Assembly (NCBI RefSeq): GCF_988243305.1
Contig: NZ_OZ547136.1
DNA: 64,000 nt
Strand: one strand, 5' to 3'
The position numbers and the translations under genes are program-made. Of the stretch, positions 6,297-58,279 are shown piece by piece; position 1 is the first letter of the stretch, and each line of letters opens with the position of its first letter. Below the pieces are notes generated by a model. The model was not told the origin of the DNA, made no database searches, and was given only the letters and a program-made list of their open reading frames with translations.

Positions 6297-6540
6297 GGTA
6301 AAAAAACCTCACTAAAATTATGGTTACCAGAATCAGGGCAGTCTTAGGAGTGGCGGCATATAGCCAAAATAACGTGAGCGGGTCCATGCCCGACAGAATC
6401 GTTACTCTCTCCCATCCGGACTCTAACCGTCGGCCCCGGAATTACACCGGATCTGCTGTCCTTTGAGTTCGCACCCAAAGCGCTCGCGGGCTTTCAACTG
6501 AGTTGATTTACCGCCGGTGGGGAATTTCGCCCCGCCCTGA
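6297..6540 (-). ncRNA. sroG: FMN riboswitch (RFN element / sroG) in the ribB leader
   Basis: Minus-strand sequence contains the conserved RFN core (AGGGCGGGGCGAAATTCCCCACCGGCGGTAAATCAACTCAGTTGAAAGCCCGCGAGCGCTTTGGGTGCGAACTCAAAGGACAGCAGATCCGGTGTAATTCCGGGGCCGACGGTTAGAGTCCGGATGGGAGAG) at about 6400-6538. Confidence 0.9.
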
Positions 6541-6669
6541 GAATAAGCGGATTCACTATAACGCTAATGATTAGCGGCAGCAACGCATAGCTTCACATAA
6601 TTCTGGTTTATGACTTACCCTTATCGCACTACAATGGCACTCAACACCTATCAGTACAGGGAAACTACA

Positions 6670-9989: not shown

Positions 9990-10135
9990 AGCCCCTCCCG
10001 AAGAAGGGGCCTTGTATAAGGAAAGGGTTATGATGAAGCTCATCATCATACTGATTGTGTTGTTACTGATAAGTTTCCACGCTTACTAACAGCCAATCAG
10101 AGGGGGGAGAAATCCTCCCTCACCCTTGTTCCTTT
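9990..10135 (-). ncRNA. sibD: Sib antisense sRNA (antitoxin) overlapping the first ibs ORF; boundaries approximate
   Basis: Established knowledge that Sib RNAs of ~110-150 nt are encoded fully antisense to ibs; ends not determinable from sequence alone. Confidence 0.45.
10030..10089 (+). CDS. ibsD: Ibs-family type I toxin, 19-aa hydrophobic peptide (MMKLIIILIVLLLISFHAY)
   Basis: ORF read directly; fits the Ibs peptide family; location between yqiK and hldE as for ibsD/ibsE in K-12; D versus E assignment is by order only. Confidence 0.75.
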   Translation: MMKLIIILIVLLLISFHAY

Positions 10136-10365
10136 ACTTTAGGTTGAAAAAAAATCAGCGTCAAGAAGGTTTCATTAACACATATTCCTGGCCCAAAAAG
10201 CCGGGGATTTTTTATATCTGCATTCCGCAAAAAACTGCAAATGCTCAGGTCGTTGCAGCCTTTTGCGTGACCGCTCGGGGAAGGGAAAACTGCCTCTGGG
10301 AAAGCGTTGCGCGAGGTCCGGCGCTCATCAACAATCGGGGAGTCAGCAGGGGGCTGAAACGGGAA

Positions 10366-10510
10366 AGCCCCTCCCGAGGAAGGGGCCTTGTATAAGGAAA
10401 GGGTTATGATGAAGTTCGTCATCATACTGATTGTGTTGTTACTAGTAAGTTTCCAGGCTTATTAACAACCAATTCAGAGGGGGGAGAAATCCTCCCTTAC
10501 CCTTGTTCCT
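10366..10510 (-). ncRNA. sibE: Sib antisense sRNA (antitoxin) overlapping the second ibs ORF; boundaries approximate
   Basis: As for the first copy. Confidence 0.45.
10406..10465 (+). CDS. ibsE: Ibs-family type I toxin, 19-aa hydrophobic peptide (MMKFVIILIVLLLVSFQAY)
   Basis: Second copy in the tandem repeat, read directly. Confidence 0.75.
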   Translation: MMKFVIILIVLLLVSFQAY

Positions 10511-10585
10511 TTACTCTAGGTTGAAAAAACAACAGCGTCAATAGGCCCACCTGCTACGAAGCGAGATCTGTGAACCGCTTTCCGG

Positions 10586-18409: not shown

Positions 18410-18536
18410 GCCGGATGCGATGTAAACGCCTTATCCGGCTACATATCAACGACGGTTGTAGGCCTGATAAGACGCGCGAGTGTCGCATCAGGCGTTGATT
18501 GCCGGATGCGGCGTGAACGCCTTATCCGGCCTACGC
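18410..18536. repeat. BIME: cluster of three REP palindromic units
   Basis: Repeated GCCGGATGCG...CGCCTTATCCGGCCTAC-type motifs between convergent cca and uppP. Confidence 0.85.
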
Positions 18537-57664: not shown

Positions 57665-57757
57665 TTCGCTGTATATTAAGCCATTACTAGAGATAACTCA
57701 TTCCAGACAAAGGTGAGCTATTAATTATGTAATCGGCTTATAGCTCTTTACAAAAAG

Positions 57758-57985
57758 ACCGCACGGGTGTTGGTGGCGTCAAAATCGCCGAAGCGTTCCC
57801 TGGAGGCCGGGGCGACGCGCATGGATGCGCGGCGAGGGCGCATCTTACAGGGACGTTCCCTTGCGCCCGACCCGGTAGCCGCAAGGGATAAGCTGAGGGA
57901 ACCGCGCAGCGGCGATTTTGTTCGCCAGAGCCTGGGGGTGCAGGGGGCGGCGGCGATTGGCCGCCCCCTGCGCGCTCCCTGCGGT
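57758..57985. other. GC-rich highly structured intergenic element of unknown nature
   Basis: Perfect 12-bp hairpin GCAGGGGGCGGC/GCCGCCCCCTGC (57940-57971); long-range inverted repeat CAAAATCGCCG (57780-57790) / CGGCGATTTTG (57910-57920); several smaller GC stems; both overlapping ORFs have non-protein-like composition. Confidence 0.5.
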
Positions 57986-58279
57986 AGTGACTTTATATGG
58001 CATAGCACATTAAAGGAGCGCAACCGTTCTCATATACCAAATAGTTTTGCCCATATGTTATCTAATCAGCCTTAGTAGCCAGTCCTTCCCTCTGTTTATG
58101 TCAAATAAATGTAACCATTAAGTTGCAAAATATGACCTCTCTTTAAAATCCAGCATTTTTCGCTTCCCGAAGCTGTAACTTTCCTTATACTCGACCTTGC
58201 AAACACTTTGTTACATCCTGAAAGATGCGTCGACAGAACGCACCAGGGATGTGCGACAACACAATGAAAGGATCGAAAA

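Follow-up and report, generated by a model that had tools for sequence, protein, structure and literature searches.

The window (the complete stretch of 64,000 nt analyzed here) contains a GC-rich block between the genes alx and sstT, and this locus raises the question of which kind of element is located there. The G+C content is 64–70% at positions 57750–57999 compared to 38–45% in the flanks, which agrees with the abrupt change from AT-rich to GC-rich DNA described in the original prediction. There, the block was assigned to positions 57758–57985, and a structured sRNA, an uncharacterised repetitive extragenic element or a remnant of a mobile RNA element were named as possibilities. These limits were found to be too narrow. 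The homology between copies at different loci extends from about position 57742 to 58026 on the plus strand and defines one copy of a dispersed repeat of approximately 285 nt, whose last stem (P5) lies partly outside the range proposed at first. The element is oriented like alx, and the distance from the alx stop codon is 78 nt to the conserved leader (57742) or 93 nt to position 57758.

With a probability of about 0.9, positions 57742–58026 represent a copy of a dispersed, long-maintained, non-coding family of about 285 nt, which occurs in the Enterobacteriaceae and in some Halomonadaceae and whose plus strand adopts a conserved fold of several domains. This region was also considered as a chance palindrome, a REP unit or a gene, and all three identities were rejected. 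The suggested search for further copies revealed the element to be dispersed in E. coli and other Enterobacteriaceae. Using a 261-nt query, copies were found in 5,425 of 5,426 complete E. coli genomes, with a median of 4 and a maximum of 10 matching places. Four loci harbor copies in E. coli, namely alx-sstT, dusC-yohP, aqpZ-lysO and efeU-putP. In K-12, two full copies (dusC-yohP and lysO-aqpZ) and one internally deleted remnant (efeU-putP) are present. The best K-12 match to the window is the dusC-yohP copy with 87–88% identity, and the similarity starts at about 57742 and stops abruptly at 58026. In the five E. coli records inspected, including NC_000913.3, the copies are without any annotation. 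Literature searches on the element sequences, on yohP and dusC, and on CsrA CLIP data returned nothing specific to the element.

Remnants lacking the two-hairpin core were observed in K-12 between putP and efeU (locus L012, 4855–5005) and between aqpZ and lysO on the plasmid pZ1323HEC0475-2 (L010, 4001–4132), which carries a chromosomal gene block from macA to poxB. The deletion in the plasmid remnant joins CCGGGG to GGGG runs, and this junction suggests slippage between short direct repeats as its probable origin.

The copy between alx and sstT is present in 1,659 of 5,425 E. coli genomes (31%). In K-12-like strains, unrelated DNA that contains BoxC-like repeats takes the place of the complete spacer (corresponding to 57665–58095). 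At least three alleles of this spacer were distinguished in E. coli (comparing the K-12-like locus L003, 201–724, and the MRY15-117 locus L004, 201–649): one with the element and its own AT-rich flanks, one with two BoxC-like CCCTCTCCC...GGGAGAGGG repeats and one with a single repeat of this type. The spacer thus behaves like a landing pad for repeats.

The other loci are polymorphic with respect to orientation. Essentially every E. coli has a copy at dusC-yohP, with the K-12 orientation in 61% of the genomes. In the other sampled genomes (including B2 Nissle 1917 and E2348/69) the region has an equal length and is partially covered, and in both records of this type that were fetched (SCU-301 and THO-015) the element is inverted relative to K-12. 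For lysO-aqpZ, the K-12 orientation accounts for 74% of the genomes, and EDL933 has the opposite one. The 40–60 bp adjoining the element also differ between the alleles. A simple in-situ inversion is therefore ruled out as the source of this polymorphism, and the alleles are best explained by replacements or independent acquisitions. Among the alleles compared, neither a clean empty site nor a target duplication was seen, and each allele has different flanking DNA. A replication-strand bias was dropped as an explanation, since strains can carry opposite orientations at a single locus. Where the dusC-yohP allele is inverted, the 3′-end of dusC reaches into the allele-specific DNA, and the annotated gene is one codon longer (951 nt, L007 2831–3781, compared to 948 nt, L001 2022–2969).

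Beyond E. coli, a pattern scan of one genome per species resulted in 107 stretches. Real copies were identified in Escherichia, Pseudescherichia, Enterobacter, Klebsiella, Raoultella, Leclercia, Silvania, Superficieibacter, Atlantibacter, Pseudocitrobacter and three Salinicola species; the remaining stretches were chance matches in GC-rich genomes and a few contaminated bins. Relatives are thus known from at least 10 enterobacterial genera and from Salinicola. The copy number amounts to 10 in E. asburiae and reaches about 13 in related bacteria, as in one Klebsiella record of the plasmid collection with 13 places. Matches in this collection belong to chromosome-sized records (mislabelled Klebsiella chromosomes) or to records with chromosomal genes, and no match to the element was found in the phage collection. 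Paralogues within one genome are only 83–94% identical and have kept the fold, and they are therefore old. Copies identical to Klebsiella or E. coli versions were also seen on contigs assigned to Desulfacinum, Sporobacter termitidis and Bacillus (L020, L054 and L106), of which the Bacillus contig (583 bp, coverage 0.7) is the same as the window allele over the approximately 140 nt compared. These copies are probably due to contamination or mis-binning.

In the 60 genomic contexts that were scored, the element lies between convergent genes in 21 cases, between tandem genes in sense orientation in 17 and in antisense orientation in 19 cases, and between divergent genes in 3 cases. Copies therefore avoid divergent promoter regions. 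In Klebsiella, they adjoin REP units, which are separate sequences, and can be arranged in tandem. Head-to-head pairs of a copy and a diverged paralogue are frequent in Pseudescherichia, Leclercia, Silvania and Pseudocitrobacter. The resulting composite unit of approximately 700 bp has symmetrical ends (GTTCCGTTCAC...GTGAACGGAAC; loci L021–L024, L040, L095, L097, L069 and L038). Its partner module belongs to the other strand; it is separated from the 5′-end of the element by about 80 nt and lies about 365 nt upstream of the core. In Atlantibacter subterranea (L080), five tandem units of the GAACGGAACA type, one of which is GACCGGAACA, directly follow the P5 stem on its 3′-side, and this tandem motif repeats the element's own 3′-end (GTGAACGGAAC).

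For the analysis of the secondary structure, positions 57750–57990 were folded as RNA. The plus strand reached −136 kcal/mol (z = −4.7) and the opposite strand −121 kcal/mol (z = −4.2), and for both strands none of 200 shuffled sequences was as good. The proposed covariation analysis was carried out with an alignment of 52 non-redundant, diverse copies (A7) and gave a strong signal. RNAalifold identified 49 pairs in A7, 24 of them with compensatory change, and the inner stem of hairpin 2 was added to this structure to give 54 pairs (Table 1). Of 2,795 cells, 96.5% are paired, compared to 86.4% in shuffles and about 43% (38–45%) in slid registers. Compensatory changes occur in 28 of the 54 pairs and changes on both sides in 313 cells; none of 500 shuffles reached the observed values. 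G·U combinations (165) outnumber A·C combinations (7), which identifies the plus strand of the window as the structured and constrained one. This strand signature fits an RNA but is no proof of it, since single-stranded DNA also tolerates G·T.

Table 1. Features of the repeat copy between alx and sstT, with positions in the window.
Feature	Position	Strand	Remarks
Variable alx-sstT spacer allele with the element	57665–58095		three-allele alignment
5′ conserved leader AGCTCTTTACAAAAAGACCGCACGGGTGTT	57742–57771	+	start of the similarity between copies; without supported pairing
P1, 5′ strand	57772–57801	+	contains the 11-nt arm 57780–57790; pairs with 57884–57928
P2, 5′ strand GGCCGGG	57805–57811	+	closes the two-hairpin core; pairs with 57871–57880
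Hairpin 1, CGCGC/GCGCG	57814–57833	+	loop AUGGAU at 57821–57826 (C-AUGGAU-G)
Hairpin 2, outer stem GGG..CGC/GCGCCC, weak inner stem	57836–57868	+	C-AGGGAC-G, loop at 57849–57854
P2, 3′ strand CCCGGTAGCC	57871–57880	+	helices 4–5
P1, 3′ strand AGGGA..GCTGAGG..CGATTTTG..TTCGCCAG	57884–57928	+	helices 1–3
Small hairpin CCGC-GCA-GCGG	57902–57912	+	helix 9, inside the P1 3′ strand; 100% paired, 2 compensatory pairs
P4, GC-rich hairpin	57938–57973	+	12-bp stem GCAGGGGGCGGC (57940–57951) / GCCGCCCCCTGC (57960–57971), 8-nt loop GGCGATTG
P5 stem GCGCUCC/GGAGCGC	57972–58021	+	57972–57978 pairs with 58015–58021; variable loop of ~35 nt
3′-end of the repeat (AAC..)	58022–58026	+	similarity between loci stops; ORFs beyond differ in each copy

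In the resulting structure, the long stem P1 and the short stem P2 enclose two apical hairpins, followed by the GC-rich hairpin P4 and by P5. The P1 helices 1–3 are 91–100% paired in A7 with compensatory changes in 9 of 17 pairs; the outer GGCG/CGCC becomes GGCC/GGCC, CCGGC/GCCGG or CCCC/GGGG in other genera. The exact 11-bp long-range inverted repeat noticed earlier (CAAAATCGCCG at 57780–57790 with CGGCGATTTTG at 57910–57920) was recovered. P2 (99–100% paired) is nearly invariant. The stem of hairpin 1 is paired in 100% of the 52 sequences and has compensatory changes in 4 of 5 pairs (CG/GC, GC/AU), and its closing C-G pair and the GGA are invariant. In hairpin 2, pairing amounts to 98.7% in the outer helix (3 compensatory pairs) and to 77.7% in the inner one (4 compensatory pairs).

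The perfect 12-bp stem with an 8-nt loop corresponds to P4, whose helices 11–12 are 97–100% paired in A7 with compensatory changes in 5 of 7 pairs. Three additional outer P4 pairs proposed by RNAalifold were discarded, being without compensatory support and competing with P5. For P5, a second alignment showed 92.2% pairing compared to 29–42% in slid registers, with compensatory changes in 4 of 8 pairs. The variants of this stem include CGCUCC/GGAGCG, CGUUCAC/GUGAACG, CGUUCGC/GCGAACG and CGCUCU/AGAGCG, and the length of its loop is constant at 34–36 nt across clades. A local stem GATGCGC/GCGCATC had been suggested as well. Both heptamers are present (57824–57830 and 57838–57844, about 2 nt away from the positions first given), but their pairing lacks compensatory support among the homologues and was rejected; in the comparative data GCGC at 57817–57820 pairs with GCGC at 57827–57830 instead.

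A search of Rfam with permissive thresholds resulted in a single match for the element, the TwoAYGGAY motif (RF01731), which was matched over its full length with 33.1 bits (E = 0.0077). The gathering threshold of this 168-nt model is 43 bits, so that the window copy, the K-12 dusC-yohP copy (30.9 bits) and a Salinicola copy (40.7 bits) all score below it. When 18 loci were scanned at the gathering level, one match was obtained, which was the paralogous partner module in Pseudocitrobacter (L038) with 49.2 bits. A copy from E. asburiae whose two loops both fit AYGGAY perfectly had no TwoAYGGAY match in the Rfam scan, and the Rfam model therefore barely covers the enterobacterial clade. In the examined part of the original TwoAYGGAY alignment, in which gap characters hampered the search, no enterobacterial members were found.

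The loops of the two apical hairpins were compared to the motif. Loop 1 (AUGGAU) fits AYGGAY and is presented on a covarying stem. Loop 2 (AGGGAC) departs from it by a purine instead of a pyrimidine in the second position. In copies of E. coli and Klebsiella this loop reads A(G/A/C/U)GGAY or AGGAY, and in those of Enterobacter, Leclercia and Silvania it is C-AUGGAU-G, so that such sister copies carry two C-AUGGAY-G loops. The loop motif is also present in the TwoAYGGAY members from Clostridia and gut metagenomes. The term “uncharacterised” therefore does not hold entirely, considering the TwoAYGGAY architecture and the sub-threshold Rfam match; the repetitive, structured and extragenic nature of the element was described correctly. 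Elsewhere in the window, two tandem SIB RNAs (RF00113, 150 and 142 bits) were identified on the minus strand at 10015–10164 and 10391–10541, which are antitoxin RNAs of the known Sib/Ibs type I toxin-antitoxin repeats. An FMN riboswitch aptamer (RF00050, 121 bits), likewise an ordinary element of known type, is located at 6400–6548, also on the minus strand.

Some copies have gained a third hairpin of the GGA-loop kind. In these (L022, L067 and L052), a module of approximately 80 nt with its own stem is inserted after the GGGATAAG..GAGG segment, and the additional hairpin is CCCC-AGGGAU-GGGG or GGCCC-AUGGAU-GGGCC. The family gains GGA hairpins as modules.

The loop nucleotides and their closing pairs are invariant or nearly so, whereas the stems covary, and this combination indicates a sequence-specific ligand. 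A CsrA-binding RNA module is the best hypothesis for the function of the element, although the proposed mechanism as a whole is tentative and held at somewhat less than even odds. CsrA and RsmE bind the consensus CANGGANG, and the SELEX consensus is RUACARGGAUGU. The window loops CAUGGAUG and CAGGGACG fit the CsrA consensus; in the K-12 copy, the sequence is UUACAGGGAUGU. There are two occurrences of C-A(N)GGAN-G within the 285 nt, compared to a background of 0.54 per kb. CsrA binding was predicted for TwoAYGGAY by Gardner and Eldai (PMC4333381), and the Rfam clan CL00106 holds both TwoAYGGAY and CsrB. On the other side, Potts et al. (2017) give dusC and ybjE as “No” in all four Yes/No columns (headings unchecked) of their CsrA tables at the gene level. 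These tables are uninformative for multicopy intergenic sites, and peaks between genes may be reported elsewhere in that study.

According to the proposed mechanism, the element would be transcribed in the sense direction, either from an own, unrecognised promoter or, at alx-sstT, by read-through from alx, which is possible because no terminator lies between alx and the element. The RNA would present the hexaloops C-AUGGAU-G and C-AGGGAC-G with their GGA triplets 28 nt apart. This spacing is within the range bridged by a CsrA dimer, and one dimer could clamp both loops. In this way, the copies might serve as small decoys for CsrA or recruit CsrA, as tags, to the transcripts carrying them. The capacity for CsrA titration would be small unless the RNA is abundant, since each copy has two GGA loops compared to 10–22 in CsrB.

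The transcriptional signals were examined in three ways. A sigma-70 consensus scan, which is weak evidence, did not reveal a plus-strand promoter next to the element, and inspection of the conserved 5′ leaders by eye showed no convincing −35/−10 pair. A promoter or the RNA 5′-end could be located in this leader. By an intrinsic-terminator scan, none was found after the element or between alx and the element; P4 was not called a terminator by the scan because no T-run follows it.

The overlapping ORFs of 102 aa (plus strand, 57767–58075) and 91 aa (minus strand, 57748–58023) do exist, and one Klebsiella aerogenes record (LR134122; L014, 1926–2507) annotates an “Uncharacterised protein” CDS spanning its copy. 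The probability that either ORF is a real gene is nevertheless negligible, as had been expected when both were judged to look non-coding. Copies differ by single-base indels, the substitutions in the stems come as compensating pairs, Arg/Pro/Ala-rich ORFs are expected from a G+C content of 68%, and nothing is annotated at the copies in the five E. coli records mentioned above. The K. aerogenes CDS is probably an annotation artefact of a GC-rich open frame. A Shine-Dalgarno-like AAAGGAG with a downstream ATG was also tried as the leader of a small ORF and rejected. No two of the copies compared share the same downstream ORF (3, 9, 12 and 27 aa, none in the window), and the sequence GGAGCGC is the 3′ strand of the covarying P5, which explains the AAAGGAG. 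A further reading regards the element as a cis-acting extragenic RNA similar to REP, which at the ends of genes would block 3′ exonucleases or would insulate or attenuate transcription; at alx-sstT, the alx transcript would be protected or terminated before sstT. The position shortly after alx without an intervening terminator, the folding of both strands far better than shuffles, the presence of one or more gene 3′-ends next to nearly every copy and the other, BoxC-like repeats in the K-12 alx-sstT spacer are in line with this reading. It is nonetheless improbable. A barrier needs neither invariant loops nor a branched architecture, a U-tract is absent, and the orientation to tandem neighbors is random (17 sense and 19 antisense), yet the constraint is strand-specific, which points to an own promoter or to a role as single-stranded DNA.

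The main rival is a selfish, non-autonomous repeat similar to REPINs or MITEs, which would be maintained by its spreading alone and would not serve the host. Its hairpins would be recognised by a recombinase or transposase that acts in trans, with one DNA strand or an RNA intermediate as the substrate, and the bias for G·U over A·C would fit a single-stranded DNA substrate too. The presence/absence polymorphism at alx-sstT, the opposite orientations at dusC-yohP and lysO-aqpZ, the deleted remnants in K-12 and on the plasmid-borne chromosomal segment, the tandem copies next to REP units in Klebsiella and the head-to-head composites with symmetrical ends can all be explained in this way, as can the occurrence among BoxC- and REP-type repeats and the avoidance of divergent promoter regions. 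On the other hand, the single modules are without terminal inverted repeats, the alleles compared, each with its own flanks, showed neither a clean empty site nor a target duplication, and no associated transposase gene or phage match was seen. Moreover, the paralogues are old and changed in a compensatory rather than a random manner, at least seven distinct helices and conserved loops exceed the needs of REP-type substrates, and the loop motif is shared with TwoAYGGAY members from Clostridia and gut metagenomes. Taken together, a selfish repeat is considered rather unlikely, and binding of CsrA by the element is retained as the working hypothesis.

The element is real, conserved, dispersed, structured and non-coding, and it is a variant of a known RNA motif without an assigned function. 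TwoAYGGAY has been a conserved motif without function since 2010, and most of its known examples come from gut metagenomes or from organisms that are difficult to study. A well-supported relative in nearly every E. coli, with copies in K-12, makes the CsrA hypothesis testable in the best-developed bacterial system and, if the hypothesis is true, would provide the first function for TwoAYGGAY. The element also adds a repeat family with presence and orientation polymorphism between strains to the intergenic inventory of E. coli. Automated annotation sometimes takes it for a gene, and in RNA-seq and CLIP analyses it may be concealed by filters against multi-mapping reads. A more far-reaching idea, which we regard as unlikely in its full form, is that these elements constitute a third, dispersed class of CsrA-binding RNA, that is portable two-loop CsrA clamps copied into 3′-UTRs and intergenic transcripts or acting as small independent genes. 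If so, the gain, loss and inversion of copies would rewire the availability of CsrA or the CsrA-dependent fate of mRNAs between strains.

Compared to known systems, the element resembles REP/BIME and REPIN sequences in being extragenic, multicopy and palindromic, in its location at gene ends with avoidance of divergent promoters, in its clustering with other repeats and possible inverted doublets, and in its strand-specific tolerance of wobble pairs. In contrast to the REP hairpin of about 35 nt (unit of 35–40 nt), it is branched with at least seven helices in ~285 nt, lacks a conserved tetranucleotide of the GTAG type and is present in 3–13 instead of hundreds of copies, and a link to RAYT is hypothetical only. 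The original statement that it does not look like a REP unit is thus in agreement with both its size and its sequence. Matches of the REP-derived naRNA4/CssrE type (RF02564) were detected in the window at 18461–18531 (minus strand) as well as in L001 (5942–6019) and L038 (4434–4516, ES036); these are ordinary REP/BIME units, distinct from the alx-sstT element. Like ERIC/IRU, BoxC, RSA and MITEs, the element belongs to the short, non-coding, dispersed intergenic repeats of enterobacteria. ERIC/IRU, BoxC and RSA have lengths of 127, 56 and 150 bp and are present in 19, 33 and 6 copies in K-12 (PMC5172473). An identity with one of them was rejected for an element of ~285 bp with two full copies and one remnant in K-12, a distinction based on length and copy number only. 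In addition, no terminal inverted repeats or target duplications were found for the element, and the K-12 copies carry no annotation as a repeat.

With CsrB, CsrC and RsmX-Y-Z the element shares the display of C-A(N)GGAN-G in hairpin loops. These RNAs are encoded at single conserved loci, whereas the element is multicopy and polymorphic. CsrB has 10 matches to this motif and 22 GGA in 369 nt; the element has two loop motifs and 6 GGA in 285 nt, fewer than the approximately 9–22 GGA motifs typical of Csr RNAs. A discrete unit with promoter and terminator was not seen in the consensus scan (weak evidence), with no Rho-independent terminator found and no known UvrY/GacA-dependent promoter.

The closest relationship is that to TwoAYGGAY. 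The clade described here adds the P4 hairpin, the P5 stem and a defined 5′ leader, all outside the 168-nt Rfam model, and differs by loop 2 of the window copy and by its score of 33.1 compared to the threshold of 43 bits. It is therefore treated as a TwoAYGGAY-like variant and not as a member by the Rfam criterion. As in TwoAYGGAY, the core consists of two neighboring hairpins, each with a GGA-centred hexaloop and a closing C-G pair, and is bounded by a short stem and by P1, which is very long; the original description mentions very long P1 stems of 24 bp (Weinberg et al., 2010). The part of its alignment considered here contains several copies from Psychromonas ingrahamii with conserved flanks. 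Both groups thus have several copies per genome in gamma-proteobacteria, and in the 60 scored contexts the element, like TwoAYGGAY, is not consistently placed in 5′-UTRs.
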